Below are positions 1-54,541 of a DNA stretch of 54,541 nt, piece by piece. The stretch is from positions 1-54,541 of IMG/VR virus record IMGVR_UViG_3300025133_000137, one strand, 5' to 3'. Under the pieces are notes generated by a model. It searched no databases, was not told the origin of the DNA, and saw only the letters and a program-made list of their open reading frames with translations. The stretch's first letter is position 1, and each line of letters opens with the position of its first letter. The position numbers were made by a program, and so were the translations under genes. This DNA is from a virus (Duplodnaviria > Caudoviricetes).

Positions 1-209
1 ACAGCGGATTGATTACCGACACCGGCTTGCCGTCGGACACCGGCTCTATCGATTTCCAGGATTCTGGCGACAGCGGATTGATTACCGACAGCGGATTGAT
101 TACCGACACCGGCTTGCCGTCGGACACTGGTTTGCCGTCGGACAGCGGATTGCCGTCGGACACTGGTTTGCCGTCGGACACTGGCTCTATCGATTTCCAG
201 GATTCTGGC
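1..209 (+). repeat. Coding tandem repeat of mostly 18-nt units encoding DSGLIT/DTGLPS, with DTGSIDFQDSG twice
   Basis: Units such as gacagcggattgattacc and gacaccggcttgccgtcg are visible directly; no unique spacers. Confidence 0.9.
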
Positions 210-335
210 CTTGAAGTCTCTCGAAGGGAACCGCACGGGAATGTACCGGTAGGCTTAGCTCAGCTAGAAGAGCTAACTAAGGCCATAATTAAAAAAATCT
301 TCGCACAGCCCGAATCCACCGGAAGGGGGGAGTAG
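1..335 (+). CDS. 3' part of the wrap-around low-complexity virion-associated protein (starts at 54028)
   Basis: In frame with 54028..54541; D-[ST]-G-L-[IP]-[ST] repeats; stop TAG at 333-335, next ATG at 339. Confidence 0.8.
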   Translation, partial: SGLITDTGLPSDTGSIDFQDSGDSGLITDSGLITDTGLPSDTGLPSDSGLPSDTGLPSDTGSIDFQDSGLEVSRREPHGNVPVGLAQLEELTKAIIKKIFAQPESTGRGE

Positions 336-26837: not shown

Positions 26838-26839
26838 TA

Positions 26840-29968: not shown

Positions 29969-30018
29969 GGAATCGGGTCGCAATTCAGCGCCCATTAATA
30001 GAATAGAAAGAGGAAAAA

Positions 30019-37942: not shown

Positions 37943-38362
37943 ATGGCACAAGGATATAACGATAAACTCGATGAATCTCTGGGGGAGAAGGATGGTGCGC
38001 TTGCTACCAAAGACCCATCTACTACCGAAGAAGCTCGTAGGAATGAGTCCCGTGGAGCGAAAGGTCCTGATATTGATGCTCTAATTTCTCATTACGAAGA
38101 GGGACTAGCTCTTTTGAAGGAGCATAAAGCTTCTATGGGGGGTGGTGGTGAACTTATCGAGGATATAGGTATTGCGGAAGAGCTTCCTGGCGGGGAGATA
38201 CTAGCGGAAGGCGCAGCTATCGAAGAGCCTATACCCGGTGGTGAGGTGGACATCGGTGCTCTACTCGAAGCAGAAGCGGGCCCTCCAGGTCCTCCACCCG
38301 AAGAAGAGGCTTTCGATTTGAACGCGCTTACTGCACAAGCAGCTAAAAACGCACTCGCTTAG
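37943..38362 (+). CDS. Acidic small virion-associated protein with C-terminal AAKNAL motif
   Basis: aaggag RBS; QGYNDKLDESLG N-terminus; ends LNALTAQAAKNALA. Confidence 0.7.
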   Translation: MAQGYNDKLDESLGEKDGALATKDPSTTEEARRNESRGAKGPDIDALISHYEEGLALLKEHKASMGGGGELIEDIGIAEELPGGEILAEGAAIEEPIPGGEVDIGALLEAEAGPPGPPPEEEAFDLNALTAQAAKNALA

Positions 38363-38371
38363 GGAGTAGTC

Positions 38372-38680
38372 ATGGCAAGTAACAATCGTGGACCGGGTTG
38401 GCGAGAGACGCTAGGTCGTACGGAGCCTTTTTCAATGAAGGCGCTTCGAGAGAAGGCGGCTAAGAATGCGATAGACAAAGATAAGGAAGATTGGATCGGT
38501 AAGGCTACCGATAAGATGAAGAAGAAGGGAACCGTTGGCGCTTTCTCTAAAGCTGCAAAAGAGCGTGGAGAGACAACAAAAGAGTACGCAGATCAAGCGT
38601 TAGCTCCTGGTTCAACCGCCTCACCGTTGACAAAACAGAGGGCCAACTTTGCGAGGAATGTGTCTAAAGCGGGGAAATAA
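38372..38680 (+). CDS. Basic small protein with AAKNA motif
   Basis: ggag RBS; WI.KA..K..KGT.GAF..AA...T..RANFA.N pattern. Confidence 0.7.
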   Translation: MASNNRGPGWRETLGRTEPFSMKALREKAAKNAIDKDKEDWIGKATDKMKKKGTVGAFSKAAKERGETTKEYADQALAPGSTASPLTKQRANFARNVSKAGK

Positions 38681-39972
38681 TGGCAGAGTCACAGGAGCTT
38701 GTTCTCAAAAGAATGCGGGAACAGGCCGCAAAGAATGCCCTTGAGGCTGATAAGCTTATTAAAGGTCCGCTTGCAGAGGCAGAAGAATGGGCTTTAGCCA
38801 ATCCAGATCCCGAGATAGAGAAGCAAGCTCAACTAGATGAAGCTCCTGGTATTCATTCAGGGGATCTTTCTCAACGTATGTCTACTCCGGAGCAGACCCA
38901 TGAGGCCAAAAAAGACTTCGTGAAAGCTGCTGCGACAGAGGTTGCCGCTAACGCAGCGTTAGGTGGAGCAGGGAAAGTCGCACAAGCTGCTATCGCTTTC
39001 ATCCCAGCCCCCAAAGAATTTGCGCGTCATGGTATTAGCAAAATATCAGCAGCAATTCCCGAGGCTGCGAAGCAGAAGTTCCTGGCTGCCTTAGACGAGC
39101 TTAAAGCCAACAATCCTTTTGCTTACGACAATCAAGTCGAACACTACCAGAAGGTATTGGAACTCGTTGAACGGGAAGAAGCGCGACAGCGGTTATTTGA
39201 GCAGGCAAGCAAAGCTACCCCCGAGGATATTGTTCTAGACATTATTTCGAGTCTGGATGAGGGTCGGCAAAATGGGCTCCACGGTCAACTGCATTTTACG
39301 GAGAGGGAGATCAATCAATTATATAAACAAAGATATAATAATCTTCAGCACGCACGCCTTCAAGATGAGATAAGGCGTCTGCCCGATGACCTAGACAAAT
39401 ACGAGCGCAGGGTGGCTGTAGACAGGTTAGAAAATAGCAAGCGTTTTTCTCAACGAGGTAACACCAAATATCCTGACCTCCTCGATGACGGCGCACCAAA
39501 TCGGGTCTACAACCCTGAAGTCAAAGAAGTTCTAGCCAAACTAGGGCGCGAGGGCAAGATCCGCCTCTTCAGTCGCCCCAGAGGGACCCCTGGGCCCTCC
39601 GTACTTTACTCCCCTCGTACCTACCCCGGACCCGGTGGCATTGAAGGCATTCATATGAATGCCACCGACGACACGGTGGGGGCTCTCACAAGAAAGTCGG
39701 ATCTACTTGAAAAGGACTATTGGTCCCCAGAGAATATATTTAACAAACATCTAAAGTCGATTGATCCCAAGGGTAAGCTGATGGACTATTCTCGCCAAGG
39801 TTCGCCTGCTAAGGCGCGGGTGCTTGATGAAGACATTGTACAGTGGCCATTAGGTGGGGGAAAGTATGGTGACCCCGCACCTCCAGGCTCCTTATCTTTT
39901 CCAGAAGGCTCTCCTGGTGCGTTAAGTCTTGTCGATGACATCCCTGGCGCGTTAAGTATTGTAGACGATTAA
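38680..39972 (+). CDS. Hypothetical 430-aa protein with N-terminal AAKNAL motif; candidate packaged effector
   Basis: TAATG coupling; lies between TerL and portal. Confidence 0.65.
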   Translation: MAESQELVLKRMREQAAKNALEADKLIKGPLAEAEEWALANPDPEIEKQAQLDEAPGIHSGDLSQRMSTPEQTHEAKKDFVKAAATEVAANAALGGAGKVAQAAIAFIPAPKEFARHGISKISAAIPEAAKQKFLAALDELKANNPFAYDNQVEHYQKVLELVEREEARQRLFEQASKATPEDIVLDIISSLDEGRQNGLHGQLHFTEREINQLYKQRYNNLQHARLQDEIRRLPDDLDKYERRVAVDRLENSKRFSQRGNTKYPDLLDDGAPNRVYNPEVKEVLAKLGREGKIRLFSRPRGTPGPSVLYSPRTYPGPGGIEGIHMNATDDTVGALTRKSDLLEKDYWSPENIFNKHLKSIDPKGKLMDYSRQGSPAKARVLDEDIVQWPLGGGKYGDPAPPGSLSFPEGSPGALSLVDDIPGALSIVDD

Positions 39973-39989
39973 AAACGGGGTAACTAATA

Positions 39990-41819
39990 ATGGGACTAAC
40001 AGGGCAGCAGATTCGTGGGATCATCGATACTCATCAGTCTAAGATGCGGCGCGAACGCAACCAGTGGGACAAGTATCGGTCTTGGTATGTGGGTGAGTTC
40101 TGGGGCAATACGCAGGAAGACTTGCCTCAAGGGGCGAGTACTTTTACGGAAACGAACGAGGACGTAACCTTAGAAACAAACTATCCTTATGCTTACATCG
40201 ATACGATGATCGCGAATGTTTGTCCGACAAACCCACAGATTACCGTAAACGCACGGAGGGATAAGTTACGAGAAGCCGCATATTATCGGGAAGCTCTCGT
40301 TAATGACACATTCAATCGGATTAAGATGCATTCTATCGTATGGAATATGTCATCTCATGCCGCGATTTGTGGTCGTTCTTTTTTGAAAGCTGTTTGGAAT
40401 TTTAAGCGTCAGTCTCCGGATTTCTTTTCAGTAGACCCACGCTTTGTTTTCTTTGATATGTCGGCTCAACGGTGGAACGATATTCGTTATCTAGTCGAAG
40501 TTACCGTGCTTACTCGGGCAGAATTTGAGGTTCGGACGAAACGCAGGGGTAAAAAGGATGGCCGCTACAATTCAAAGGTTGCCGACAAGGCTTCGTTTGG
40601 TGGGTATCCTAGTTGGCTACGGGATTATACTAACGACCAATCCCTGTTTAACGATGCCTCTAAAGAAGTCTATGAATGGGTAACTGTTTATGAGTTCTAT
40701 GATTTTGAGGGAGAGGGGAAGTATTACCATTTCCTAGACGATTCGGATGACCCTTTATTTGTAGGCGAGCTTCCTTATCGTTTTATTCGGAACCCCTTTA
40801 CGTGTTTAACTTTTAATGACAACATGTTAGACCTTGGTGGTTTGAGTGATATTAAGTTAATTGCTTCTACACAAGAGAGATTAAACGAGTTAGATACATT
40901 AGAATTATGGCACGCTCAGTCGAGTATCCCGGTAATGATGGTCAATACAGGGCTCGTTGATAATCCTGAAATGATTTTGAATGCTCTTCGAAATGCCACT
41001 GAACCGGGCTCTATGATCGAGATAGCGGGGACTGCTAACGCTCCTCTGCGAGACTTGATCCATACCACACCAACGCCACAGCTTCAGCCTGGGTTCACTG
41101 CTATGAGAGAGCGTGCGGTCCAGATTATTGAGTTTGTACTAGGGATACCCCAGTATAGCCGGGGTGTGGTTGGGGTTACAGACGTAGCAACCGAAGTAGC
41201 TCTAGCCGATACGGCTACTCGAACAAGGAACGGACGTCGAATTCGGAAGCTAGAAGATATTATCCAGCGTGCAGCGGAAGCAATTGTTTCTCTCTATGAT
41301 GAATTCCTTCCGGCTGATAGTCTCTTACCTATTCGTTTAACGGATAGCGCAAAGGTTATTGAGGCAAATCGAGAAGCCTTAAAGCTACGAACGCTGAGTG
41401 AGGAGGCAGAGCAAGGGGCCCTAGAATATGATTACGAGGCAATTGCCTATTCCCCTACGGAAAACCATCGCCTCATACAGCTTCGAAACATCAATCAATA
41501 CCTCCCGCTTCTTATGGAAGCACCTAATGTGGATAAAGAAAAACTTGTAGTCAAGCTGCTCGACTTACTTCTCATGCGGGACCTAGCTATGGAAGCCCAG
41601 CAGGCAGACGCTCAGATGCCTCCCGGTGCAGGTATGGGTCCAATGGAGCCACCTTCTGAAGATACAATGGCAACTGGCGCCCTACCCCCAGGGACACAGG
41701 AACCTCCGACACCCCCCTTCCCCGGTGGTGGCCCAGGTTCTCCAATGCCCTCCGTATCAGATGGGTTTGAAGGAGCAGCCGCAGGGTTTGAAGGCGCAGG
41801 ATTCCCAGGAGCTAAGTGA
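39990..41819 (+). CDS. Portal protein (P22/podovirus-type)
   Basis: Size, position, patterns VDP..VFFD, Q..LN, G.....G....ATE, Pro/Gly-rich tail. Confidence 0.85.
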   Translation: MGLTGQQIRGIIDTHQSKMRRERNQWDKYRSWYVGEFWGNTQEDLPQGASTFTETNEDVTLETNYPYAYIDTMIANVCPTNPQITVNARRDKLREAAYYREALVNDTFNRIKMHSIVWNMSSHAAICGRSFLKAVWNFKRQSPDFFSVDPRFVFFDMSAQRWNDIRYLVEVTVLTRAEFEVRTKRRGKKDGRYNSKVADKASFGGYPSWLRDYTNDQSLFNDASKEVYEWVTVYEFYDFEGEGKYYHFLDDSDDPLFVGELPYRFIRNPFTCLTFNDNMLDLGGLSDIKLIASTQERLNELDTLELWHAQSSIPVMMVNTGLVDNPEMILNALRNATEPGSMIEIAGTANAPLRDLIHTTPTPQLQPGFTAMRERAVQIIEFVLGIPQYSRGVVGVTDVATEVALADTATRTRNGRRIRKLEDIIQRAAEAIVSLYDEFLPADSLLPIRLTDSAKVIEANREALKLRTLSEEAEQGALEYDYEAIAYSPTENHRLIQLRNINQYLPLLMEAPNVDKEKLVVKLLDLLLMRDLAMEAQQADAQMPPGAGMGPMEPPSEDTMATGALPPGTQEPPTPPFPGGGPGSPMPSVSDGFEGAAAGFEGAGFPGAK

Positions 41820-42598
41820 TGCCGGAAGATGATTTAGATGCTTTGAGAGCACAAGCGGCTAAAAAAGCCTTAGAGCCATCTGAAGAGCCTCGACGCAAAC
41901 ATTCGTGGGACCTGAATGTCATTAGCCAAGACCCGAAAGACCCACAGAAATCCTTTGCGATGACAGGTTCACCGGGCTCAGACCCTAAGAAGCTTTACGT
42001 AGGGGATTTTACGCCTGAAGGGGATGCTGTTGTAGGCTTTGAAGATCAGGGGATTCGACTACTTCCTGAGCAACCAGGCTCGAAAGAGTATACCCGCTAC
42101 ATGGGGGACAAGGTTCCGACTCCTGCCCCAGACTATGCAGCGATTGCAGCGAAGGTTAACGAAGCATCGCTGGAACAATCGCAGCTTGCTCAGAAACGAA
42201 CCCGCGCCGCCGCAGACGCTATCGAGCGCGCACGAGAGGGTGTCATCACTGAACTCCGGGGCTTCTATACAGGTCCCCCAGGCGGTCAGTGGGGGGATTA
42301 CGAGGCGACTATCAACGCTCAAATTAAGGATGCAGATTTCCCAGACCCCCGGACAGAGGTTGCGGTAAAAAATGCGTTTGATGATATGTGGTCATTACTT
42401 GACGACAGACCGAGGTTGTTAAGTACATCGCAAGAACATCAAGATGGTATTCCCAATCGTATTTATTTCGAGTCTGAAAATGGCGAAAGGTGGGAGTGGG
42501 TTTATAATGATGGACAGGTTGAAGCTCATCGAGCAGATGAGGATGAGGTGCCCCAAAGGGGAGCTATGCCGGATTTTTCAGGGCTCGAACCAATGTAG
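41816..42598 (+). CDS. Hypothetical acidic protein with N-terminal AAKKAL motif
   Basis: Coupled to the portal stop; begins PEDDLDALRAQAAKKALE. Confidence 0.7.
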   Translation: MMPEDDLDALRAQAAKKALEPSEEPRRKHSWDLNVISQDPKDPQKSFAMTGSPGSDPKKLYVGDFTPEGDAVVGFEDQGIRLLPEQPGSKEYTRYMGDKVPTPAPDYAAIAAKVNEASLEQSQLAQKRTRAAADAIERAREGVITELRGFYTGPPGGQWGDYEATINAQIKDADFPDPRTEVAVKNAFDDMWSLLDDRPRLLSTSQEHQDGIPNRIYFESENGERWEWVYNDGQVEAHRADEDEVPQRGAMPDFSGLEPM

Positions 42599-42606
42599 GA
42601 GAGACA

Positions 42607-42999
42607 ATGCCGTTATATGATATTAAATGTTTAAGCTGTGAGCAGAGAACCAATGACATCTTCTTCCGACTCAACGACACTATCATCTGCCCCACCTGTG
42701 GCGAAGGTGCTCGTACTATTATCGGTCCCGTTCTTACTATTGGCCCTATGCCGTCAAAACCGCTCAAGATGGAATCCATTGGGCGCGAGTTCACATCTAA
42801 TAGCGAGCTTAGGGCGTATAAGGAAGCTAACCCAGATTTAGCTTTTCATTCTAAGGATGATACGAGTTGGCGCAACCATGTAGATATGGCAAGAAATAAA
42901 ACAGAAAGAAAAGCAAAGCTACAGGGTTTCAGTGATAGGGCAGATAAAAAGGCATATTTGCGGAAAGAAAGGAAGAAGAAGCAGGAGCTATCGAATTGA
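42607..42999 (+). CDS. FmdB-family zinc-ribbon protein
   Basis: MPLYDIKCLSC...CPTCG. Confidence 0.75.
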   Translation: MPLYDIKCLSCEQRTNDIFFRLNDTIICPTCGEGARTIIGPVLTIGPMPSKPLKMESIGREFTSNSELRAYKEANPDLAFHSKDDTSWRNHVDMARNKTERKAKLQGFSDRADKKAYLRKERKKKQELSN

Positions 43000-43035
43000 T
43001 TTTTGGTTATCTTTTGAGTAAAACAATGGGGGGAG

Positions 43036-43302
43036 ATGTCCATGCATGACGGGTCTTGTCCAATGTCGGGAGAAGTTGAGGTTGAAACCAAAGAACAGGT
43101 TTCCTCCTCAGATCCCCTTCAAGAGATTCTTGATAATCCTCCTGCAAACCCAGAAGAATTTATGGCTAGGCTAAAAGAAAGCGGCTATGAATTAAAACCA
43201 ATCGTACAGCAGCGGGAGAGTTTCTTACCTCCTCAACCTAAAATGGTAGTTATTCGATTGGACGCAGCCAAAAATGCTTTAAAGGGACAACCGCATGAGT
43301 GA
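43036..43302 (+). CDS. Small protein with C-terminal AAKNAL motif
   Basis: G-rich RBS; overlaps the scaffold start. Confidence 0.6.
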   Translation: MSMHDGSCPMSGEVEVETKEQVSSSDPLQEILDNPPANPEEFMARLKESGYELKPIVQQRESFLPPQPKMVVIRLDAAKNALKGQPHE

Positions 43303-44158
43303 AACACCAGAAGTAGCAGCCCCAGTAGCCGAAGCACCGGCAGTTGCGGCACCGGCAGCGGCTGCACCAGCGGCTCCTGCGGCTGAAGTTGACGCTTCTG
43401 CTTCTTCTAGTGAGGCCCCTGTTGCTAGTGAGTCAGCGGTTACGCATGAATCGTTCGATTGGGATGGGTGGGAAGGTAGCTCCGAAACTTTTCCAGAAGA
43501 TATTAGGCCATGGGCAGATAAGATTTCTTCGCATTATACTCAATACAATGAGATTCTAAAGAAGAATCATCATAATCTGAAAGAGCTTTATGATTCTATT
43601 TTGACTGGCTCGGAAGATCCCCGTATTAAAGAGTTTGAAGAAAGTAGAACTAGCTGGGACGCAGAAAAAGCTGATTTTCTTGCGAAGCAAGAAGAACTTC
43701 AGAACGGCTGGGATACAACAAAACAGAACTATGAGGCTTACGAGCAGGCTGTTTATAAATATCATGTTGATAAAGCAGAGAAGCAACTAGAGGTCTTCGT
43801 AGGTGCGCGTCCTGAAATCTTAAAGGATGAAGCTAAGTATAAACTTTTTTCAGAACTTCTTGATGAGAGATGGGATCTAGATTCGGCGGATAAAATTCTA
43901 AAAATGTCCCCGGAAGCTGCTACGATTGCCCGAAAGGCTAAATCGGAGGGTGTTCCCGCTTCTTACGCTATTAAATTTGCAGAGAAAGCTCCCCCCCAGG
44001 TGCAAAAACCGCAACCTCGTCCCGCAGCTACAATCACGTCGGGTGCCGTTAGTCGGACTACCCCACATGCTTCTAGCAGAGGGATGGGTGACGCAAAGTC
44101 TTTGGAAGAAAGTAGGGCTATGGCATCCGCTAGAGCTTTAAAATTACACAAACGATAG
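43295..44158 (+). CDS. Capsid scaffolding protein
   Basis: Ala/Pro/Glu-rich N-terminus, central coiled coil, short C-terminal helix; directly upstream of the MCP. Confidence 0.75.
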   Translation: MSETPEVAAPVAEAPAVAAPAAAAPAAPAAEVDASASSSEAPVASESAVTHESFDWDGWEGSSETFPEDIRPWADKISSHYTQYNEILKKNHHNLKELYDSILTGSEDPRIKEFEESRTSWDAEKADFLAKQEELQNGWDTTKQNYEAYEQAVYKYHVDKAEKQLEVFVGARPEILKDEAKYKLFSELLDERWDLDSADKILKMSPEAATIARKAKSEGVPASYAIKFAEKAPPQVQKPQPRPAATITSGAVSRTTPHASSRGMGDAKSLEESRAMASARALKLHKR

Positions 44159-44167
44159 GGGGAGACA

Positions 44168-45232
44168 ATGGCTATTTCGCCTGATGTCCTAGCAACTGCG
44201 CTCCAGGAGTTGATGCCAAGTTACTCCGAACTTTTTGTTCAATGGCATCCAGTCCTAGAGAAATTAGTAAATAAAGGGAATCTCTCACGAGAAACCCTAC
44301 AGGGTCCGTGGCGTGAATTTGCCGTTGTAACTGATGGTCCTGGTGATGTTACTCAAGTACTCACTGGTTCAGAGGTTATTGCCGGTGGTCGTCGTCAGAA
44401 TGCGGTTCGAGGTAATACATATGCACCTCGTTTAATTTATGCATTCGATGTTCCTGGTAAGGACTTGGCCGAAGCTAACGGGGAGATGGACCTTGCAAAG
44501 ATCCTGAAGAACTACCCTGAGCTTGCGCTTAGTGACTTCCATGAACGGATTGCAGACCAAATGGGAACAGGAAACGGCCTCAACGTGGGTGGTTTTCTTA
44601 CGCTTAATGGTGACGCCACCTATAACCCAGATGGTATTGCTCGTAACGGTGCATTCGAGTTTGCGGCCCCTGCGGCGCAGGTTCTGCCTCGATTTGGCCT
44701 TAACCCAGGAACAGTACCCGGTTGGGTTAACCAGTACGGCCAGATTACTTCGTTTGCTGTGGACGGTAAGTCTACAATGCGTCGTGTTTATTATGCCTGT
44801 TCTCGTCAAGGGAAAACATTGGGTCCAGTTGACCTACTTCTCGGTGATGAGGAAAGCTATCTTAACTACATTGAAGACTTGGACGATCAGGTTCGGGTAA
44901 GCAAAGTAGAAGGGGATAAGGCTCCTGCTAATGTCCGACAGGGGACAAAGTTCCTCGATGCGGATTATTACCTGGAAGACTCCATTGTCCCGGCACTCTT
45001 TAACGGTGGTGCAGGAAGAGATGGTGTCATCTACATGATGAAGACCGGCACTTGGCACGCATACACCCTCGGTCATGATGCGAATCGTGAAACGAAAGGT
45101 GACTTTGCAGTAAGAGGCCCGTTCCGTATTCCGGAACAAGACCTCTGGCGTTATGAAATTGTACTCATGATGGGTATGCACACCACTCAACTTCGAGCCA
45201 ACGGCTGTATTGAAGGCGGCTCCATCCCATAG
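44168..45232 (+). CDS. Major capsid protein
   Basis: 354 aa following the scaffold, strong RBS, HK97/P22-coat-like size and composition. Confidence 0.85.
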   Translation: MAISPDVLATALQELMPSYSELFVQWHPVLEKLVNKGNLSRETLQGPWREFAVVTDGPGDVTQVLTGSEVIAGGRRQNAVRGNTYAPRLIYAFDVPGKDLAEANGEMDLAKILKNYPELALSDFHERIADQMGTGNGLNVGGFLTLNGDATYNPDGIARNGAFEFAAPAAQVLPRFGLNPGTVPGWVNQYGQITSFAVDGKSTMRRVYYACSRQGKTLGPVDLLLGDEESYLNYIEDLDDQVRVSKVEGDKAPANVRQGTKFLDADYYLEDSIVPALFNGGAGRDGVIYMMKTGTWHAYTLGHDANRETKGDFAVRGPFRIPEQDLWRYEIVLMMGMHTTQLRANGCIEGGSIP

Positions 45233-45255
45233 GGATGATTTAAAGGAGGTTTATT

Positions 45256-45858
45256 ATGTCACGTACAGCTATGGGGATTGACCATCTCACTGCAACAGGT
45301 CAACCAGACCCACTTAACCCAGGCGCAGATCTGCCAGTCCCGGTAACCGCTGCGATTGGTCGGTTTGCACAGGCACCACTTGGATTTATCCATGTAGAGC
45401 CTGCAAGCCAGAATCCAATCGATTTTGGAGGGGGCCCTATTCCAGTTAATAACTCTGGTGCGGGTGATGAAGAGTGGATCTATGTATTCAACTCAAGTGG
45501 TGCTCCTATATTGCCTGGAGCACTTTGTCAGCGCGAACTGCTTACCGGGGTCCCAGGGCCACCCGGACTTCCAGTTTGTTTTGCTACAACTGTGATAGCT
45601 GCTCCGGCAAGCGAACGCATAGTTCTTGGCGTAGCTCAATACCCCATTCCGGCTGGTTTCTTCGGTTTTCTTCTACGGAAAGGGGCAGCTGAGGTAGTCT
45701 ACACCGCGCCGACGATTGGTGGTCTTCCCATTATCCCGACCGCAGCGGGAGTTCCCGGATTAAGCGACGAGGGTGTTATTGGTCAGCCTGGGTTTGGGAT
45801 TACGACAGCTATCGCGGCTCCTGGTCCTGGCATGGCTATTATAGATTGTTCTGGCTAA
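45256..45858 (+). CDS. Capsid decoration/cement protein
   Basis: aaggaggt RBS; WIYV....I..G...GVAQ..I..G.FGF...G pattern; immediately after the MCP. Confidence 0.65.
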   Translation: MSRTAMGIDHLTATGQPDPLNPGADLPVPVTAAIGRFAQAPLGFIHVEPASQNPIDFGGGPIPVNNSGAGDEEWIYVFNSSGAPILPGALCQRELLTGVPGPPGLPVCFATTVIAAPASERIVLGVAQYPIPAGFFGFLLRKGAAEVVYTAPTIGGLPIIPTAAGVPGLSDEGVIGQPGFGITTAIAAPGPGMAIIDCSG

Positions 45859-45881
45859 AAGCTTGAAAGGGAAAGGGGCGG

Positions 45882-47882
45882 ATGAACCTTGCTGAAATCC
45901 GGACGAGGATCTTTAATCAGATTGACTGGGCTCCAACTACCAGTTCTGAAGCGGTAACTCGTACCAATGGTTTTATTAATCGTGCTTACGAACAACTCTG
46001 TTTAGAGGCCCCTTTCTGTTTCTTTGAGTCAGAGGTTAAACTTTCGACTCTACCCGATGTCCTTTCAAATGACGAGTGCAGTACGGCAAATGGGATTAAT
46101 CCTATTTTAGTACCGGTTATTGAGGCGTCGGGTATCGGTATTGCAGACCGTCTTACCTTTGGGACTCAGACCCCCAGCATGATTGCCACTCAGAGAAATG
46201 CGGACGAACAAGCCGATACTGCTGGGGTATTACCTGTTGGTGCGAATACCACCCAGGATACAAATGAAAGTATTCGTTCATGGGCCCCCAATCCTTGGGT
46301 TTTGACCTGGAACTTCGCAGCTTCTGCTGCGCTCTGGCAACAGTTTGTGGCTGCTGGTGGCGTCGTACCTCCGATTGATGGCTCGTGGGATGGTAGGAAT
46401 ATCGATCTCTATGGACCTGATGGGAAATGGCATACGAATCGAATTCGGGAGGTTTGGTTTGAGGCGCAGGCAGTTGAGGGATTTCCTGATATGCTTAGTT
46501 ATTGGATTGTTTTATGGAATCCTTTTCCGATTGAACAATTTGATTACAGCACAACTACGTTTAAGTACCGTGTCTATACGGAGAATTACTATTTTCCTGA
46601 TGATATGATTAAGGCTCATTCTGTTGTCATTAATGATGATCAGCGTACTTATCCTGTGGATATAATTCTTCAGGAAGAAGCGGAACAGTTCTCGCTGACA
46701 GATCATTTTGAGATGGCGAGTGGTATACCTTCTGTTGCTTATCGTAGATCCCACTTCCAGTTACCTGCCCCAAATACAGCTCCTATTGCTAGTCTTAACG
46801 TTTGGGAGTCTTCAAATATCCATTGGCATGGTCCTGAGCCTGCGGGTACGTTTAGTTATCTCGTTACTTACTGTATTGGATCTAGAAACTTATATAATCG
46901 AAATCCGGGCCCAGGCATGTTCGATGAAGACTATACGAATAATTTCCTCCAGAATGGTCGTAATACCTTTTTCGGAGTTTGGCCTTACTATGAACCCACA
47001 ACCCCAGGGGAAACTTCAGGTAATGTAGTTCCCTGGCATCCTTCTTCCAATCGTTTTCGAGAGCCCCTATGGGAATCTGCTCCGTCACCCATCTCGTCTC
47101 TGGTTACGGTAAGGCTTGACCCAGAAGGGGGTGTCGGTACTAATGAGGCGGTAACTCTCCAAGTTCCAAACATTGCTTTCATGCTTGGGATGCTTGGATC
47201 AGGGCTGTATGAAGATGATTCCCATCTCACACGTTCTTTCCGGCGTCCCTTTGCGGATCACTGTGGAGTTCGGATTCGGATTTATCGACGGAGGCACACA
47301 CAGGACTGGACAAACTATGAAATTCTGCGGGCGGCTGCCCCGCCCCATCTAGAAGGGGCGACTTATACTTCTCTTGAAGTTGATGGCGTTCTACAAGCTC
47401 CTTCTGGCCACATTGAAATCTCAGATGCATATTATTTACTGGCCGAGATGCAGGTTACCGACTCGAATAGGGGGATTTACATCGACGATGGGCAGGTACA
47501 TCCTGACTATAATCGAAGGCTGAGAGATGTTCATGGTTATCAATCAATGGGCCTTTATCCTATTCCCGATAAGACTTATAATTTCAAAGTCCGCTGTCTG
47601 CGCCGCCCACCAAAGCTCATTGACGATCAAGATGTCCCTCTTGTCCATGCTGAAGCCTGTAATGCTTTAATTGACTTAGCTGCTTCTTATTGGTATGAAG
47701 CAGAAGGCGTACCCGAGATGGCTAGGCAGATGCGAGAGCGCTATGATAGGGGCATTTTTGATTTAAAGAAGAGATATGGTAACCTACAGAGCCAAGCGAA
47801 CCCCCATCTTAAACGCCTTTCAAGAGCGAAAGCAGGGTTCAGGCGGACACGTCCTTTGCGTAAGTGGTGGACACTACCTTAA
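45882..47882 (+). CDS. Head-tail adaptor (tail tubular A-like) enlarged by inserted beta domains
   Basis: MNLAEIR..I...FINRAY, Y.FP.D, LYPIPD..Y...P..L....D.P...AL..LA. Confidence 0.7.
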   Translation: MNLAEIRTRIFNQIDWAPTTSSEAVTRTNGFINRAYEQLCLEAPFCFFESEVKLSTLPDVLSNDECSTANGINPILVPVIEASGIGIADRLTFGTQTPSMIATQRNADEQADTAGVLPVGANTTQDTNESIRSWAPNPWVLTWNFAASAALWQQFVAAGGVVPPIDGSWDGRNIDLYGPDGKWHTNRIREVWFEAQAVEGFPDMLSYWIVLWNPFPIEQFDYSTTTFKYRVYTENYYFPDDMIKAHSVVINDDQRTYPVDIILQEEAEQFSLTDHFEMASGIPSVAYRRSHFQLPAPNTAPIASLNVWESSNIHWHGPEPAGTFSYLVTYCIGSRNLYNRNPGPGMFDEDYTNNFLQNGRNTFFGVWPYYEPTTPGETSGNVVPWHPSSNRFREPLWESAPSPISSLVTVRLDPEGGVGTNEAVTLQVPNIAFMLGMLGSGLYEDDSHLTRSFRRPFADHCGVRIRIYRRRHTQDWTNYEILRAAAPPHLEGATYTSLEVDGVLQAPSGHIEISDAYYLLAEMQVTDSNRGIYIDDGQVHPDYNRRLRDVHGYQSMGLYPIPDKTYNFKVRCLRRPPKLIDDQDVPLVHAEACNALIDLAASYWYEAEGVPEMARQMRERYDRGIFDLKKRYGNLQSQANPHLKRLSRAKAGFRRTRPLRKWWTLP

Positions 47883-47897
47883 TCCCAGGAGTTAGTG

Positions 47898-48143
47898 ATG
47901 GATTTTATTTGCGGTGCAATCTACCGAGTTAAAAACGAGCCAGAATCATACGGAATGATGCTAGCAACGGAGATGAAGAATGGAATATCCCACGGGCTAT
48001 TCCAACGCTTCGGTCACGCTCCTATGCGGATTAACAATGATTACAATGGCGGGATGGATCTCGAACTCGTTTCAGTTCCAGGTGCCCAGACTACACCCAC
48101 GAAAAAACCAGGTCGGAAAAAGCGTCTTGCCTTAGAGAAATAA
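47898..48143 (+). CDS. Small hypothetical protein
   Basis: aggag RBS; basic C-tail. Confidence 0.55.
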   Translation: MDFICGAIYRVKNEPESYGMMLATEMKNGISHGLFQRFGHAPMRINNDYNGGMDLELVSVPGAQTTPTKKPGRKKRLALEK

Positions 48144-48153
48144 GGGGGATGTT

Positions 48154-50604
48154 ATGGCGACAAAGCGTAATCGGCTTACTTCCGGTACGCTCTCATTACG
48201 AGTTGAAAGTAATAAGTTTATTCTAGCGGATACAATTGCTTCTCATATTCGTAATATGGTGCCGACCGAGGAGGGGACCTTACGTGGAATTCGTGGTCCG
48301 TGTCCATATGTGCCGTATAATCCGAATCTAGCTGCGGCCCTTCCACCGAATAGTGGTCGGCCTATTTTTCCTATGGAGGGGCTCCTAGCTACGAAAGGAC
48401 TTTTCCATGCCGTACTACCTACCTATAATCGGGATGTTCTTCTTTTAGAGGCGCATAGTACAATATGGGAGCTTCAGGGTTGGATGCATGGTTGGCGTCC
48501 CCTTGTAGGTCAAAATCCCCTATCTCTTTTGGTCGTTCAGTCCTGGCTTAATGATGATGCTCCACGTTTTCCAACACAGTTTGAGGTGACAGATACTGGG
48601 ATTATTATTGTTCCCCAGGGGGGGCGCGCTTATTTTTATGATGGTAAGTGCGTAGCCCAGTTGGGGTATACAGAGATTCCGGGTCCTCCAACAGGGCATG
48701 GACCGGCTTCGACCGAAGATTATGTCACTTACGCCCGATTAGAGCGGGGCACTTTTGATATTGCTACTACAACCTACTATCCTGATCGTTACATCTACGG
48801 AGAGGAGATCCCTCTAGTAGACGAAGCCTTCGGTAATCCTATTGAAGTTGGGTTTGCAGATCCCCTTTTGAATAATGATTCATACGCACATGATAGTCAG
48901 CAGGGGTTTAAAACGGCTATGCATCGTGACTTTGGGTATGGACGGGTGGGAACAGTCGAGCCAAATCCGGGTGATGTGGGGGTGAATGGCATTGTCTTAA
49001 ATTGCCGTTATCAAGCAGCAATTCAATGGATAGATCGCTGGGGTAATCTCTCCCCATTAGGAGGGCGTAGCAATGAGGTTTATATTACTGAGCAACCTTC
49101 TTTTATATATAGTGAGACTACAGATTCAACAGAAGAAGACATAGTAACGGAAGTTAGTCCGGGGAAAATAGATTTAGTTTTGAAGCAAGTCGCATGGAGT
49201 GGTATTGAGGCTGGACCAGAAAGGACTATTGGACGGATTCTTTGTCGTACGAAAGATTTAGACCACTCAGGAACATCCAGCTTATTCATGATGCGATCTT
49301 ACGCAGCAGAAGGGGGAGCTAATTTTGCGACAATTCCTGATAACGATACTTCTTTTTTTCCTGACAATGTACCTGATTCGTGGCTGTTTATCCCTGTAAA
49401 GGAGCCTATACCTATCCCGGAGTTTAAGCTTTCTCGGGCCGCTTTCGGTCGGCACTTTATTGCAAATATGACAGCAGAAGAGGGCCTTGTTCGTTGGTCA
49501 ATGCCCGGTAGGTGGGGTACTTTTCTTAAAGATGACTATATATTCCCAGACCCTACCGGAGCGCAGGTCACGGGCCTCTGGCGCTGTGCCCAGGGACTAC
49601 TCGTTTTCACCTCTGGGAGTACATACCTTTTTACCCCGAACAGTTCAGGGGACGGTTTTAAGAGCCAGACAGTAAGTGCCACAGTGGGGTGCGCAGCACC
49701 AAATTCTCTCTCTACGACAGAAACAGGTTTGACTATTTGGTTATCTTATTCGGGTTTTTATACTTATAGTTCAGCTGGAATTAATCCAATTAGTGCGCCT
49801 ATTGAGCGCACACTGAAGACGCTTAACCGTAGTCGACTTCGCCAAGCTTGTGCAGCGATAGATGCGGAGACAGGTGAGTATAGATGTTGGGTAGCTCGTT
49901 ACTCTTCAAAAGAGAATGATTTATGCTTCGTATATGATGGGGTAGGGTGGCGGGAACGTGATGATATAATTGTTACAGGACTCTGTGTTACCCGAGATCA
50001 CCGTCAGTATATGTTAGCGGCTGGTCGTCAGTTTAGGAATGGAGATCTTTATCAACCCCCACTTAGCTCTGGGCCCGAAGATGGGTATGGAGTATATAAT
50101 CCATCTCCAGTTGAGCCTCCCGACTATAACGTCTGGGTTATCGATCATGAGAATCAAGCTTATATACCAATTCGAAGTCCTGCTTTAGTTGAGACCGCGT
50201 GGCTAACAGGGCTAGCGGGGAGAGAACGTGCAACAGCTTTGACAGTTTATTTTTGGTTAAGAGAAACAAAGAAAAATACAGCGTCCTATCCTCCCTTTGA
50301 TACAGAGGGGGACTTAACCGTAGAGGTATGTCGAGATTGGCGTGAGACAGTAATCGAGACTGTAACTACTGATTTAGTTCCTGATGACGATCTCCCCCCA
50401 TTCTATAACGACACACTTTTAGGCACTGACTCTCTTTGGATTAGACGCAGACCTTATTGGGTACGTGCATTTATTTACGTACCTTCGTGTGAGGTCTTTA
50501 AACTTCGGATATATAATACAGGGGACTGGGAATTCTTGGGACTCGTCTTCGATGAGCAACCCAAGAGGAGCGGTGGCGCTCGTATTCCAGTTTCTAGCGG
50601 GTAG
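48154..50604 (+). CDS. Tail nozzle/stabilization protein (P22 gp10 / tail tubular B-like beta-propeller)
   Basis: NM.P..EG.L, VRWS, VTGL...LLVF, VGC.APNS, WLS..G.Y, I..IS.PI. Confidence 0.75.
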   Translation: MATKRNRLTSGTLSLRVESNKFILADTIASHIRNMVPTEEGTLRGIRGPCPYVPYNPNLAAALPPNSGRPIFPMEGLLATKGLFHAVLPTYNRDVLLLEAHSTIWELQGWMHGWRPLVGQNPLSLLVVQSWLNDDAPRFPTQFEVTDTGIIIVPQGGRAYFYDGKCVAQLGYTEIPGPPTGHGPASTEDYVTYARLERGTFDIATTTYYPDRYIYGEEIPLVDEAFGNPIEVGFADPLLNNDSYAHDSQQGFKTAMHRDFGYGRVGTVEPNPGDVGVNGIVLNCRYQAAIQWIDRWGNLSPLGGRSNEVYITEQPSFIYSETTDSTEEDIVTEVSPGKIDLVLKQVAWSGIEAGPERTIGRILCRTKDLDHSGTSSLFMMRSYAAEGGANFATIPDNDTSFFPDNVPDSWLFIPVKEPIPIPEFKLSRAAFGRHFIANMTAEEGLVRWSMPGRWGTFLKDDYIFPDPTGAQVTGLWRCAQGLLVFTSGSTYLFTPNSSGDGFKSQTVSATVGCAAPNSLSTTETGLTIWLSYSGFYTYSSAGINPISAPIERTLKTLNRSRLRQACAAIDAETGEYRCWVARYSSKENDLCFVYDGVGWRERDDIIVTGLCVTRDHRQYMLAAGRQFRNGDLYQPPLSSGPEDGYGVYNPSPVEPPDYNVWVIDHENQAYIPIRSPALVETAWLTGLAGRERATALTVYFWLRETKKNTASYPPFDTEGDLTVEVCRDWRETVIETVTTDLVPDDDLPPFYNDTLLGTDSLWIRRRPYWVRAFIYVPSCEVFKLRIYNTGDWEFLGLVFDEQPKRSGGARIPVSSG

Positions 50605-50610
50605 GTTTAT

Positions 50611-51576
50611 ATGGCTTGGAAATTTACACTCCACAATATGAAACCCGAACACTCGTTGTCCGTTATGGATATTAATGATAATTTTATTGAGATCATTGAT
50701 GAGATGGGTTCTTTGAATGAGCAGAATTGGAATGATCGATTTTTATTCCGAGTTGATTTAGGGCCCACTGAAACAAATGAGATCGTAAATTCAATAGAAG
50801 ATGCCGCTGCGTATGTAATTAACCAGACGGCTCATATCATAAATCCTAACTTTGATTTAGAGAATGATTTTGATGATGAGGTGATGCAAACCTTCTCATT
50901 TGAGTTGAACGAGGATGGAGGCTGGAATCCCATTCCTTTTGGGGGAGCATCTATTGAGAGTGATACTGAGATGCAGTTCACGTCTAAAGGCGGGAAGCTG
51001 TGGATTATGGCATCTTTTCAATATAGTAGCGGAACTTCTTGGTTTGGTTTTCCTCAACAGCGAGTTGATAAGCAGACATGGAACGGTGTTGGATTGGATG
51101 ATCCCACAGAAGCTGTCTTTCATAGTGAGGGGGGGAGGCTAGCTCTCAATACAAGGAGTGCTGGGGCTGAGTTTGCTATTCAGGTGGACGGTACTATTAT
51201 CCCTGAATCAATTTTGGGATCAGGCGAAAGTTCTGTTCAAGACCCTACTGTTTTTAGGCAGTGGAAGAGTACACCCCCTCTTCCGATGCTTCCTGAAAAT
51301 GTATGGGGACCTCTTCGGGGGTCTACCCCTGGGTGTTGGGGAGATCGTCTTCCTTGCGTGGTAGAGGCGCTTGTTTCTATCGCTCCTGGGGTTCACACCG
51401 TTAGGGTTGTTGCTAGAGTCCCTAAGCCCCTAGAATCAAGACGGCCTGCGTCCCTTGAAGCTTGGAATGACGGAAATGTCTATCCGAATGTCGCGACTCC
51501 TGGATTTGAGTATGTTCCGCTTCCCTTGCAATGGGTAACAAATCGTGAGTTAATCGTTATAGAAATTTTGAGGTGA
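50611..51576 (+). CDS. Tail-associated protein, paralog 1
   Basis: N-terminal ..INDNF attachment-like motif; beta-rich; ends RELIVIEI. Confidence 0.6.
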   Translation: MAWKFTLHNMKPEHSLSVMDINDNFIEIIDEMGSLNEQNWNDRFLFRVDLGPTETNEIVNSIEDAAAYVINQTAHIINPNFDLENDFDDEVMQTFSFELNEDGGWNPIPFGGASIESDTEMQFTSKGGKLWIMASFQYSSGTSWFGFPQQRVDKQTWNGVGLDDPTEAVFHSEGGRLALNTRSAGAEFAIQVDGTIIPESILGSGESSVQDPTVFRQWKSTPPLPMLPENVWGPLRGSTPGCWGDRLPCVVEALVSIAPGVHTVRVVARVPKPLESRRPASLEAWNDGNVYPNVATPGFEYVPLPLQWVTNRELIVIEILR

Positions 51577-51578
51577 AT

Positions 51579-51845
51579 ATGGTTATTCCACCAGCAGTGA
51601 TGAAAGCAGGGCTTGCACTCCTACAAGTAGGGGGGACGGTAGCAGCAGCACAAAAACGAAAGCTCGATAAAATGAGAGAAGAAGAAGAAGAAGAAGACCA
51701 GGGTCGGTCTAAAACGCAGAGAATTCTTATTCAAAAAGAAGACCTACAACCACAACAGGTTCCTCTTCCTACTCTAGAAGAGGAAGAAGGTCAGAGTCTT
51801 GATACGCCCGAAGACCTGCAATTAGAAGGCGTCCACTATGCCTGA
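51579..51845 (+). CDS. Small acidic low-complexity protein
   Basis: gaggtg RBS; N-terminal hydrophobic Gly/Ala helix, poly-Glu. Confidence 0.55.
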   Translation: MVIPPAVMKAGLALLQVGGTVAAAQKRKLDKMREEEEEEDQGRSKTQRILIQKEDLQPQQVPLPTLEEEEGQSLDTPEDLQLEGVHYA

Positions 51846-53049
51846 GATTACTTTTGTCCCTTATCTAGAGGGACAACCCTATGACGCAGCATCATTGAAT
51901 ACACGCTTTTCTGCTGTAGAGACCGGTTTAGAGAGTCTAAGACCAGATATTCAATTTGGTTCAGAAGGACTTGGATCTCCGCACCTCCCTAGCCTAGCTG
52001 GATATGTTGTAAATACTGCCCAACCACAAACCCCATTTCTAATACAAGTCGCCGGGGATACCTATACTACGGGACCCCCCCTAACTTTTGCCGCAAACGA
52101 ACATCCAATTCCAGGGGCCCAGTCCATGCTAAACTTAGCGGAAGATCCCCCGTCCACTTGGGTTCCAGGTAATTACCCAGGGGAACTCGCGCCGGGAATA
52201 ACCCTTATCAGTGATAATAACTATTGGTTGCCGTTACGAGCGGGGGCTGACGGCGGGGGATCGGATAACACTCTCGCGCTGTGTTTTGGGGATCTCCTAA
52301 GCGAAGATGATCAAAATCACTTGTATTTAGATCAACCTACTGCGCTTGCTCAAGAGGAAGTCTGGGCACAAGGACTAGTTGTACTTGCGAACTTCCAGTT
52401 TAAAAATCTTGTACGACAACGAGCTGACGGTGAAGGGCCGGGTGACATGCGTCCCTTTTTGGGGACACGTTTTTATGCGGCTTTTTGTATTCAAATTCTA
52501 ACTTACGTTGACGATTGGGAACCAGGTGTTTCTGGTGTTGGAACGGAGAATATGGTATGGCGTATAGTTCCTCGGACGATTCGTTTTGTCTCAGAAAAGA
52601 CCCTTCCAAATGCAGGTCATACTCGTGCCCCATCACCTTCTGTTGCACTTAATATTTTCAAGAATACGGCTGGAAATGATGGAACCACTGTTGCGCCTTA
52701 TGAATGGCTAAATGAGCACGCCTCAGAAGAAAGTTGGATTGATATTTCAATTCGAACAGTTATTCGAAAGGAGGATTTGCTAGCTTCAGGGCAGAGAGTC
52801 TCCCCTGAGACTGGCCCCCTTTTAGGTGTGAGGGTCGCAATCGGTCAGTGGATAGTTTGGCCTGGTCCGGTTCAACCCGGTTCTTATGCGAATGACCCAA
52901 TACCCGGCTGGGATATTTTTTCTGGTTATGGCGGTCCTCCAGATGGTCTTTTTGATGTGGGTCTGCCCCAAATGAGCTTTATCCGTCAAGGCAATCTTAC
53001 AGTATTCCCTCTTCATGCGGGTGAAAACATTAAACGGTTGATACCCTAA
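51838..53049 (+). CDS. Tail-associated protein, paralog 2
   Basis: N-terminal Y.EG.P.DAASLN.RF. Confidence 0.6.
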   Translation: MPEITFVPYLEGQPYDAASLNTRFSAVETGLESLRPDIQFGSEGLGSPHLPSLAGYVVNTAQPQTPFLIQVAGDTYTTGPPLTFAANEHPIPGAQSMLNLAEDPPSTWVPGNYPGELAPGITLISDNNYWLPLRAGADGGGSDNTLALCFGDLLSEDDQNHLYLDQPTALAQEEVWAQGLVVLANFQFKNLVRQRADGEGPGDMRPFLGTRFYAAFCIQILTYVDDWEPGVSGVGTENMVWRIVPRTIRFVSEKTLPNAGHTRAPSPSVALNIFKNTAGNDGTTVAPYEWLNEHASEESWIDISIRTVIRKEDLLASGQRVSPETGPLLGVRVAIGQWIVWPGPVQPGSYANDPIPGWDIFSGYGGPPDGLFDVGLPQMSFIRQGNLTVFPLHAGENIKRLIP

Positions 53050-54014
53050 TGCCCGATCTTACTCTAAATACTTTTATAGATGGGACTCCCGCAGATGCGG
53101 CGAGTCTGAGTCAGAACTTTTATACTCCCCAAGTCTTTAACACGCCTCTTCCAGATGCCGTTTCTTTTGAGCTTCTTAATGGCTGGCTAGAGCGGGATAA
53201 TAAGGAGGCCGATACTAAGGTTTCGCGAGAAGCGATACAACCTAGTGCCCTAACAGAAGGGCGTATGGTAGGTGGTACTCTAAATCAGGATTACTTTAAA
53301 TCTCTTTTCCCCAAATTCTGCAACTGGGAAAATGCTACACAGGATATCTATCCATCGGAGCCGGAGCCTGCCGATTTTGATTTTGAATATCAAGGCACCG
53401 AAGGCACCGAGGGCAGTGCCGAACATGATTCATTCCTCACAATTCCAGGGGCCTCCATTAATTTTTATAATCCGTATGAGAAAGCCTTTATTCTTTTTAC
53501 GTGGAATATTCGGTGGACTCACGATGGGGAGGCAATCATGTTTGGCCGCTTACCAGGCGGGGTGATACCCTTTAATATTACTGAAACTGCTCAAGAGGAT
53601 GCAGCTATTCGTTTTTTTCTTAAAACACCCACTAATTACGGATATGTGCCTGGAATTGGGGCCTCAGCAGATTACTCTGATGCGCTTAGACGGCGTGTAG
53701 GGCAGATTAATATTGGGTTGGAAACGCATAGTCAATTTCCAAGTAAAGAGGTCGGAGGACCGGGCCGGTTCGATTATTTACGTCATCGAGAATGGTCAGG
53801 CCACTGCGCATTAGGTGTCTCTCGCGGTGAGAATTTGATTAATCCTTCGGTGCCAGCTCTAGGCCCCCTTCGGTATCCAGGTAGCAATACCGGGGTGTCA
53901 CGTGGATGGTATGGAGGAAGCTTACGAATTGCTTCTGGTGCAAAACAAGCTCGTGTCCAAGTCCGCTCAATGCGTTATATTTGTTTTAAGTTAGAAGATA
54001 CCCCAGCTGGTTAA
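53049..54014 (+). CDS. Tail-associated protein, paralog 3
   Basis: N-terminal F.DG.P.DAASLS.NF; TAATG coupling. Confidence 0.6.
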   Translation: MPDLTLNTFIDGTPADAASLSQNFYTPQVFNTPLPDAVSFELLNGWLERDNKEADTKVSREAIQPSALTEGRMVGGTLNQDYFKSLFPKFCNWENATQDIYPSEPEPADFDFEYQGTEGTEGSAEHDSFLTIPGASINFYNPYEKAFILFTWNIRWTHDGEAIMFGRLPGGVIPFNITETAQEDAAIRFFLKTPTNYGYVPGIGASADYSDALRRRVGQINIGLETHSQFPSKEVGGPGRFDYLRHREWSGHCALGVSRGENLINPSVPALGPLRYPGSNTGVSRGWYGGSLRIASGAKQARVQVRSMRYICFKLEDTPAG

Positions 54015-54027
54015 GAAGGATGAGACA

Positions 54028-54541
54028 ATGGCATTCGAAGATAAATTAAGAGATAAGGCAATCAAAGCCGCACTTCCCCCGACGCAAGATGATCCCGACC
54101 AACAGCTCCTAGACAAACTATATGCCGCTGAGGAGTCTCCAGCAGCAGAAGTGGACACCCCCCCTACGATGGATCGATACCATGGGAAAGGTCCCGGTAA
54201 GACCTACACGGATAAATTCGATCCGGAATGGTCCTATCGTTTGTATGACGATGGCTCGATTGAGATTATTGCGGCTCCGGAAACATCGACGCTAAAGCTG
54301 CCTTATACTCCGAAGAGAGATGGGCGCGCCTATGAGGCTATCTTTAACCAGGTGACTGGGGCTGAACCGAAAGCGCCAACTGAACCGAAAGCGCCAACTG
54401 AACCGAAAGCGCCAACTGAACCGAAAGCGCCAACTGAACCGAAAGCGCCAACGGAGGCTGTCGAGGAAACAGTTACGGAAACAGTTACGGAACCCGCTAT
54501 TCCAGGCGGTGATGATTCTGGCGACAGCGGATTGATTACCG
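54028..54541 (+). CDS. 5' part of the wrap-around virion-associated protein (MAFEDKLRDKAIKAALPP...), continuing at position 1
   Basis: aagga RBS, ATG 54028, open to the window end; missing from the ORF track because it has no stop within the window. Confidence 0.8.
   Translation, partial: MAFEDKLRDKAIKAALPPTQDDPDQQLLDKLYAAEESPAAEVDTPPTMDRYHGKGPGKTYTDKFDPEWSYRLYDDGSIEIIAAPETSTLKLPYTPKRDGRAYEAIFNQVTGAEPKAPTEPKAPTEPKAPTEPKAPTEPKAPTEAVEETVTETVTEPAIPGGDDSGDSGLIT
54364..54452 (+). repeat. Five tandem 18-nt units gaaccgaaagcgccaact encoding (EPKAPT)5
   Basis: Seen directly; followed by two copies of gaaacagttacg. Confidence 0.95.

Follow-up and report, generated by a model that had tools for sequence, protein, structure and literature searches.

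A scaffold-tail-like terminal motif on five further head-module proteins of an uncultured tailed phage

The IMG/VR virus record IMGVR_UViG_3300025133_000137 (Duplodnaviria; Caudoviricetes), analysed here over its whole length of 54,541 bases and referred to as the window, encodes a putative scaffolding protein of 287 aa (43295..44158, + strand) whose C-end carries a short motif that recurs at or near one terminus of five other, otherwise dissimilar proteins of the head module. The motif comprises 13 residues, h-x-x-h-R-x-x-[A/V]-A-[K/R]-x-A-[L/I]. It is real, selected at the protein level, shared with the scaffold, terminal in position, confined to the head module and portable within the phage family. 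We consider it somewhat probable that this tag is a portable docking helix, resembling the scaffold tail, by which accessory or cargo proteins are brought into the procapsid. So far, short signals that target proteins to capsids have been described in encapsulins and a small number of cultured model phages; uncultured marine phages have offered no handle on which proteins are co-packaged, and a tag of this kind would provide an address label that is readable from sequence alone.

Copies of the motif in the window

All five accessory copies are encoded on the + strand. Two are C-terminal: in the acidic, Gly/Pro/Glu-rich open reading frame (ORF) p139 (139 aa, 37943..38362), the tag LNALTAQAAKNAL (38318-38356) ends one residue before the C-end, and in p88 (88 aa, 43036..43302) the tag MVVIRLDAAKNAL (43243-43281) lies near the C-end. 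The remaining 3/5 are N-terminal. The Lys-rich p102 (102 aa, 38372..38680) carries MKALREKAAKNAI (38435-38473) at residues 22-34, which become residues 1-13 if the ATG at 38435 is the start codon. In p430 (430 aa, 38680..39972), LKRMREQAAKNAL (38704-38742) occupies residues 9-21 and is followed by a hydrophilic linker, and in p260 (260 aa, 41816..42598), LDALRAQAAKKAL (41834-41872) occupies residues 7-19 in front of a linker rich in Pro and charged residues. The scaffold tail itself, LEESRAMASARAL (44102-44140, + strand), lies 28 nt before the start of the gene for the major capsid protein (MCP).

The significance of these copies was assessed with two gapless scoring matrices built from relatives of the phage, for which 93 IMG/VR stretches matched, 92 were confirmed and 80 were kept (MCP identity 63-97%). 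The first matrix, of 14 positions, was trained solely on 37 distinct scaffold C-tails of relatives, with the clade of the window excluded, and was run over 69 window ORFs (17,866 aa, 16,969 positions). Ranks 1-5 went to p260 (18.0 bits), p430 (17.8 bits), p88 (13.7 bits), p139 (12.3 bits) and p102 (12.1 bits), and rank 6 to the window's own scaffold tail (11.2 bits); all six positions fall within 37.9-44.2 kb of the 54.5-kb genome. In 200 shuffles a mean of 0.26 positions reached at least 12 bits, versus five observed, and the maximum was 16.5 bits. As a caveat, the training tails had been put in register with a regular expression shaped by the motif; an independent MAFFT alignment of 31 scaffolds gives the same invariant positions as the tails registered in this way. 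For the second matrix, 22 terminal tags of non-scaffold proteins served as the training set, all of them from relatives that do not belong to the clade of the window; it again returned the five copies at ranks 1-5, with 14.8-21.2 bits (p139, 16.3; p102, 19.3; p430, 19.8; p88, 21.2), compared with a null maximum of 11.4 bits on average and 15.1 bits at the 95th percentile. Moreover, translation of the 54,541 bases in all six frames yields five occurrences of the pattern AAK[NK]A[LI], each on the + strand, in a real ORF and between 38.3 and 43.3 kb. The shuffles, together with the comparison to minus-strand ORFs given below, rule out a chance origin of the five copies. A HMMER profile of the 15-residue scaffold tails was uninformative against the window proteome (all matches at or below 2.2 bits, best shuffled match 5.8 bits) because it is too short for local scoring by a hidden Markov model; the gapless matrices were used instead.

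A first-pass annotation of the window had listed six copies in addition to the scaffold tail and had linked them to that tail. The coordinates and translations of all seven peptides are exact, and the link is borne out by the first matrix; five of the six copies (p139, p102, p430, p260 and p88) are far beyond chance. The sixth, EDKLRDKAIKAAL (54037-54075, + strand), is unsupported: it scores 1.1 bits with the first matrix (rank 87 of 16,969), is outside the top 14 of the second and matches only the regular expression of that annotation. It lies at the N-end of p282, a 282-aa ORF whose 5′ part covers 54028..54541 on the + strand and which continues at 3..335 when the record is circularised. The homologue of p282 in the related locus L003 (L003:19248-20009) has the segment LRDVARRAL about 15 residues from its C-end; this near-tag, regarded as no more than a lead, scores -2.9 bits with the gapless matrix because its Arg is shifted by one residue.

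The same annotation had described the bearers as otherwise dissimilar and the conservation as acting on protein rather than on codons, and here too the data agree. Once the motif had been masked, the best E-value in an all-vs-all BLASTP comparison of the seven proteins was 0.087 (in a seven-sequence database). Across the core codons of the five strong copies, identity was 0.93 at codon positions 1 and 2 vs 0.27 at position 3, and codon pairs encoding the same residue shared their third base 30% of the time. Because identity at the third codon position is no higher than random, it is the peptide that is under selection and not a DNA or RNA element, and an element of the latter kind was thus ruled out.

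The motif among related phages

In 80 of 80 related loci the motif was found within the last 30 residues of the ORF that ends next to the MCP gene. These scaffold tails follow the pattern h-x-[D/E]-h-R-x-x-[V/A]-A-R-x-A-L-[K/N], after which come basic residues; examples are LKDWRSHVARNALN, FKDLRNQVARLALK and MDDIRNIAVKRALK. R274 and A281 are invariant in the MAFFT alignment, and the Ala column 278 and L282 nearly so. These four residues correspond to motif positions 5, 12, 9 and 13, respectively, and the same residues are retained in the accessory copies; they are among the fixed letters of the form R-x-x-A-A-K-x-A-L given in the first-pass annotation.

When 2,092 distinct + strand ORFs of the 80 loci (359,657 aa) were scanned at a threshold of at least 13 bits, 57 scaffold tails and 32 non-scaffold instances (31 distinct 14-mers) were recovered. 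The great majority of the latter (28/32) are terminal: 20 are N-terminal (starting within the first 40 residues), 8 C-terminal (ending within the last 30) and 4 internal, compared with shuffle means of 0.7, 0.15 and 1.8. Minus-strand ORFs yielded a single match in 242,798 aa vs 89 matches in the 359,657 aa of the + strand. The tag bearers are mostly non-homologous to each other, and nearly all are encoded between the position of the small terminase and the MCP gene. Among them are a 521-aa protein in L018 (19.4 bits), a 405-aa protein in L050 with a tag at both ends, proteins of 168 and 928 aa in L004, three tagged proteins in L066, and proteins of 78-82 aa in L021 and L038, ending in ...AARKALAQ and ...AARRAIAKDMSS, respectively.

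Homologues of the tagged window proteins retain the motif to varying degrees. In L001 and L003 the p139 homologues keep ...AAKNALA at the C-end, and the p102 homologue in L001 has its tag at residues 5-17; in distant homologues of p102 (phrog_20603) the tags are degenerate or absent. A small ORF of the p88 type is located directly upstream of the scaffold gene in all 79 loci with room for it, and in 32 such ORFs aligned with p88 a mini-domain at the N-terminus is joined to the C-terminal tag by an acidic linker that varies in length.

The earlier suggestion that the motif is portable and can sit at either terminus agrees with these counts and with the existence of protein families that occur both with and without the tag. 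One such case is a highly basic protein of 97-101 aa, a family not present in the window, which carries the strongest N-terminal tags. Its tags score 14-29 bits in six loci (L079:2002-2295, L077:1184-1477, L046:1612-1917, L024:763-1059, L025:486-782 and L033:1546-1842), with the sequence …TASGKKVSYGQAG…SRKRWKC…, and the homologues in L007 and L011 are without it. In 22 GenBank marine phages, including Vibrio phages, cyanophage S-TIM5 and Roseobacter phages CRP-7 and CRP-212, the matches to this protein begin at query residue 12 or later; these homologues therefore lack the full tag, which spans residues 3-16. A different kind of change is seen at the p430 locus. Over the tag and linker (about 80-110 residues), the N-termini of p430 and a 448-aa protein of L003 (L003:5229-6575) are 73% identical, and those of p430 and a 972-aa protein of L001 (L001:751-3669) 42%. 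The alignments are limited to the first 82-114 residues and the bodies cannot be aligned, in spite of the same genomic position of the three genes and an MCP identity of 92-97%. Judged from these sequences, the p430 locus looks like a case of cassette-like body replacement behind a constant tagged N-terminus.

A candidate docking helix and its alternatives

Several structural features can be set beside these results. The body-side 30-mers next to all six accessory tags are at the 91st-98th percentile for their content of P, E, D, G, S, Q, K and N. In an AlphaFold2 model of the scaffold (mean predicted local distance difference test, pLDDT, of 79.2), a disordered N-terminus is followed by a long helical hairpin (residues 71-171), a small helical region and a linker of low confidence; the pLDDT drops below 50 at residues 249-260 and is about 62-79 in the terminal helix (residues 270-286). 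In this model the protein is elongated and mostly helical, and a flexible segment tethers its C-terminal helical element, as in scaffolds of the P22 gp8 or 80alpha gp46 type. On an ideal helix, by hand calculation, motif positions 1, 5, 8 and 12 fall within about 60 degrees of each other, with 9 and 13 adjacent and K/R10 roughly opposite. MCP shows almost no variation across the family in its N-terminal 28 residues, among them D6, E14 and E21, which fits a receptor role. The AlphaFold2 model of MCP was poor (mean pLDDT 41.5) and unusable, and a complex prediction of MCP (A1) with residues 1-45 of p260 (A2), run without controls, gave values of 0.27 and 0.23 for the interaction prediction score from aligned errors (ipSAE), both below the mark of 0.32, and counts neither for nor against binding.

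In the mechanism that we favour, the motif at the scaffold C-end would be the docking helix of this phage family, and the five other head-module proteins would bear a copy of it at a free N- or C-terminus on a flexible hydrophilic linker. We infer that the scaffold tail is a coat-binding element and that the tags use the same site, so that a tag would occupy the receptor site of the scaffold tail in the assembling procapsid. By analogy with P22 and 80alpha, this site may be the MCP inner face or N-arm. Tagged proteins would be co-assembled inside the shell in sub-stoichiometric amounts and would end up inside procapsids or virions.

Known systems offer parallels as well as differences. In phage 80alpha, the scaffold ends in 16 residues that make up an amphipathic helix and a hook on the coat N-arm, CpmB of SaPI1 has a near-identical element that uses the same coat N-arm site, and Ala in the scaffold helix cannot be enlarged, A198I being lethal (PMC5644958). 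As with 80alpha gp46 and SaPI1 CpmB, further proteins of the phage studied here bear the short C-terminal helix of the scaffold and may dock through it. The 80alpha helix is short (11 residues), has small Ala and follows an unresolved, probably flexible part of the scaffold, and the arrangement here is similar. Unlike in the 80alpha/SaPI1 pair, the copies are encoded in the phage's own genome and not in a satellite, and five or more different proteins per genome carry them, at either end; a RIIK hook is absent, as is any similarity in sequence to the 80alpha motif. For P22, R293 and K296 in the C-terminal helices of gp8 are reported to pair with acidic residues of the coat N-arm (PMC9965877). 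The tail described here is likewise a C-terminal basic helical element, with an invariant Arg and a conserved Arg/Lys, and D6, E14 and E21 of MCP could be the acidic counterpart. It differs from gp8 in that a single helix is predicted instead of a helix-turn-helix, and there is no sequence homology. P22 ejection proteins are not reported to share the gp8 motif in that text on P22 (PMC9965877).

The capsid targeting sequence (CTS) of T4 targets proteins into heads and localises them to the core structure (PMC9958956), and the 30 residues at the N-terminus of P1 DarB target this protein into the capsid (PMC9024508). In T4 and P1, too, a short terminal peptide is common to unrelated head-internal proteins and suffices to load foreign ones; their signals are N-terminal only and, unlike the present tag, are not copies of the scaffold tail. 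Encapsulins direct diverse cargo to the inner side of their HK97-fold shell by means of a short peptide that is attached through a flexible linker at a terminus of the cargo. The tag resembles these cargo peptides in being set off from the body by a flexible linker. In contrast to encapsulins, the shell in question is that of a phage, has a scaffold and packages DNA; the tag is a copy of the scaffold tail, and the motifs are not the same. In T4, the prohead protease removes the CTS. Among 30 window ORFs scanned (Pfam and/or PHROGs), none matched a family of such proteases, and a novel one is conceivable; a T4-like cleavable signal is therefore unlikely. In a limited search of open-access text, no account of several proteins of one phage bearing a copy of the scaffold tail came up apart from the 80alpha/SaPI1 pair.

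A number of observations count against docking through a shared scaffold site. The window's own scaffold tail is the most divergent copy, with A at position 10 and R at position 11, and its score is near the mean top match of the shuffles (10.5 bits); the accessory tags are therefore closer to the tails of other clades than to their own. The scaffold label comes from gene order and predicted architecture, and no homology to known scaffolds was detected: no PHROG or Pfam scaffold family matched, Foldseek of the model against the PDB gave nothing at E <= 0.001, and a profile run against PDB sequences returned weak coiled-coil matches only. In the p88 family the tails are divergent, with 34/79 reaching at least 8 bits and 11/79 at least 11 bits in the scaffold-trained matrix. 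The likely ejection or internal proteins encoded downstream of the tail genes (248, 584 and 2554 aa) have no significant tag, and a loading system would therefore not serve all internal proteins. For the tagged proteins, Pfam, PHROGs, a PDB sequence search and the ESM Atlas gave no usable annotation. Furthermore, the helices are not unusually amphipathic, as the first-pass annotation had called them; in hydrophobic moment, the seven peptides fall between the 10th and 81st percentiles of window 13-mers, and the tag helix is better described by a conserved face rich in small residues.

Other explanations must be weighed against the same data. Recruitment to the head could run via another receptor, i.e., the scaffold core, the portal or the zinc-ribbon protein, with the tag serving as a helix-helix association element. 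This would correspond to the core localisation described for the T4 CTS (PMC9958956), and it would suit the position of the tagged genes on either side of the portal gene as well as the distribution of portal, zinc-ribbon protein and scaffold, which are as widespread in the family as MCP; the small Ala at positions 8, 9 and 12 would also lend themselves to tight helix-helix packing. Yet the two resolved scaffold C-terminal elements contact the coat N-arm (PMC5644958, PMC9965877), and no result singles out portal, scaffold or zinc-ribbon protein as the partner; we regard this route as rather unlikely. We give a smaller chance still to the idea that the tagged proteins are assembly factors, such as co-scaffolds, helpers in size determination or portal incorporation, or chaperones, which would employ the scaffold's docking helix during assembly and depart together with the scaffold. 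The invariable place of the p88-type ORF beside the scaffold gene speaks for it, as does the layout of its members, in which a small domain, an acidic linker and a docking helix follow each other as in the scaffold, and CpmB itself is reported as a second protein with the scaffold C-terminal motif that competes with the 80alpha scaffold (PMC5644958). Many tagged proteins, however, are clade-specific and are gained, lost or body-swapped among near-identical phages, a pattern uncommon among core assembly factors and better known from accessory or effector genes, and one of the best-tagged proteins is the highly basic one of 97 aa, which has homologues in unrelated marine phages.

It is very improbable that the motif has no docking function and was left by duplication or recombination between head genes, or that it is a nucleic-acid element located near the starts of genes. 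The copies are indeed all near a gene boundary, within about 65 nt of a start codon, and the head-module genes of the family clearly exchange segments. Against such an origin stand the random identity of third codon positions (0.27-0.30) next to conserved amino acids, the retention of the motif in lineages whose MCPs differ by 30-37%, the strong terminal enrichment relative to shuffles and the lack of similarity in the flanking sequence.

Should the tag dock at the scaffold's site, its tie to the scaffold's own tail suggests a simple mechanism, namely competition for scaffold sites, and it would mark otherwise unannotatable 'dark matter' genes as probable capsid-associated proteins. A bolder version, to which we assign a limited chance, is a plug-and-play encapsidation code used by this abundant lineage of uncultured marine podoviruses, in which a tag at either end loads any protein via scaffold sites on the coat protein, and the protein stays in the capsid after the scaffold has left, to be injected with the DNA. 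The 430-, 448- and 972-aa bodies would in that case be polymorphic injected effectors, for host takeover or anti-defence, that are exchanged as cassettes, and the basic 97-aa protein with its tag would be a DNA-binding protein packaged alongside. The tag as such opens the questions of which proteins a phage delivers with its DNA, how cargo sets evolve through tag gain, tag loss and body swapping, and whether a natural tag of 13 residues, placed at one end or the other, can bring foreign proteins into an HK97-fold shell. Even as a mark of assembly helpers, it would define where scaffold and receptor meet in a large family of uncultured phages.

Head module and genome record

The tagged genes sit within the phage's own head module, between the genes for the large terminase TerL and MCP, and are not satellite-encoded. 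The module is read from the + strand. It begins with a 139-aa ORF (35784-36203) that is possibly the small terminase, a label given by position only, and with TerL (36200-37933), which has remote tblastn matches to annotated large terminases. The portal protein (609 aa, 39990..41819; phrog_156, E 3.7e-22), an alternative receptor candidate, is encoded between p430 and p260. The scaffold gene is followed by that of MCP (354 aa, 44168..45232), the presumed receptor. MCP was assigned to the major head protein family phrog_9953, with an E-value of 6.8e-4 for the window protein; 31/32 family members matched, the best with E 7.7e-11. A profile of the MCP alignment gave nothing meaningful against PDB sequences. 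TerL, portal, an adaptor domain and the tail genes identify the window as a tailed phage and not as an encapsulin.

Between p260 and p88 lies the gene of the zinc-ribbon protein p130 (130 aa, 42607..42999, + strand; PF09723, E 5.2e-06, below the curated cutoff), another possible receptor. BLAST identified 79 subject ORFs in related loci as homologues (54 distinct sequences). Most members have a W-R-x-H-[V/R/K/Y]-D segment in mid-protein, without the A-R-x-A-L half of the motif, and this segment is identical to the first half of the scaffold tails of some clades (DWRSHV...). The likeness could be due to chance, shared ancestry or a functional relation.

Searches of GenBank phages with tblastn gave no match for MCP, p430 or portal. 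The closest cultured TerL is that of Roseobacter phage CRP-7 (24.8% identity), and none of the 24 translated coding sequences in its 19-kb stretch from TerL to the tail exceeds 8.9 bits for the motif; no virion proteomics can therefore be transferred from CRP-7. An hhalign comparison of the scaffold alignment with the putative scaffold of CRP-7 reached a probability of 0.2 and was rejected, and an ESM Atlas row with PF14449 (score 0.77), found for the tagged proteins, was below the noise level and not used.

Outside the tagged region, the last 80 residues of a 666-aa ORF (45882-47882, + strand) hold an SU10 adaptor domain (PF24175, E 1.2e-06), which suggests a head-tail adaptor with a long N-terminal extension. 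The 2554-aa ORF (2873-10537, + strand) downstream of the tail genes, which had no Pfam or PHROG match and no significant tag, may be a giant internal or ejection protein, judging by its position. A block of minus-strand ORFs at about 14.3-30.1 kb (14318-30073) forms an oppositely oriented module, and a D5-like primase-helicase (32460-34958, + strand; PF08706, E 2e-31) is encoded just upstream of the packaging genes. The record has an estimated completeness of 100%. The ORF open at its 3′ end (54028-54540) runs in frame into the ORF open at its 5′ end (3-335), giving the 282 aa of p282 on circularisation. As this ORF continues across the circularised junction, the genome is probably circularly permuted and complete, though the record is classed as 'linear'. 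p282 also contains a tandem repeat of KAPTEP (five units) near 54.4-54.5 kb.

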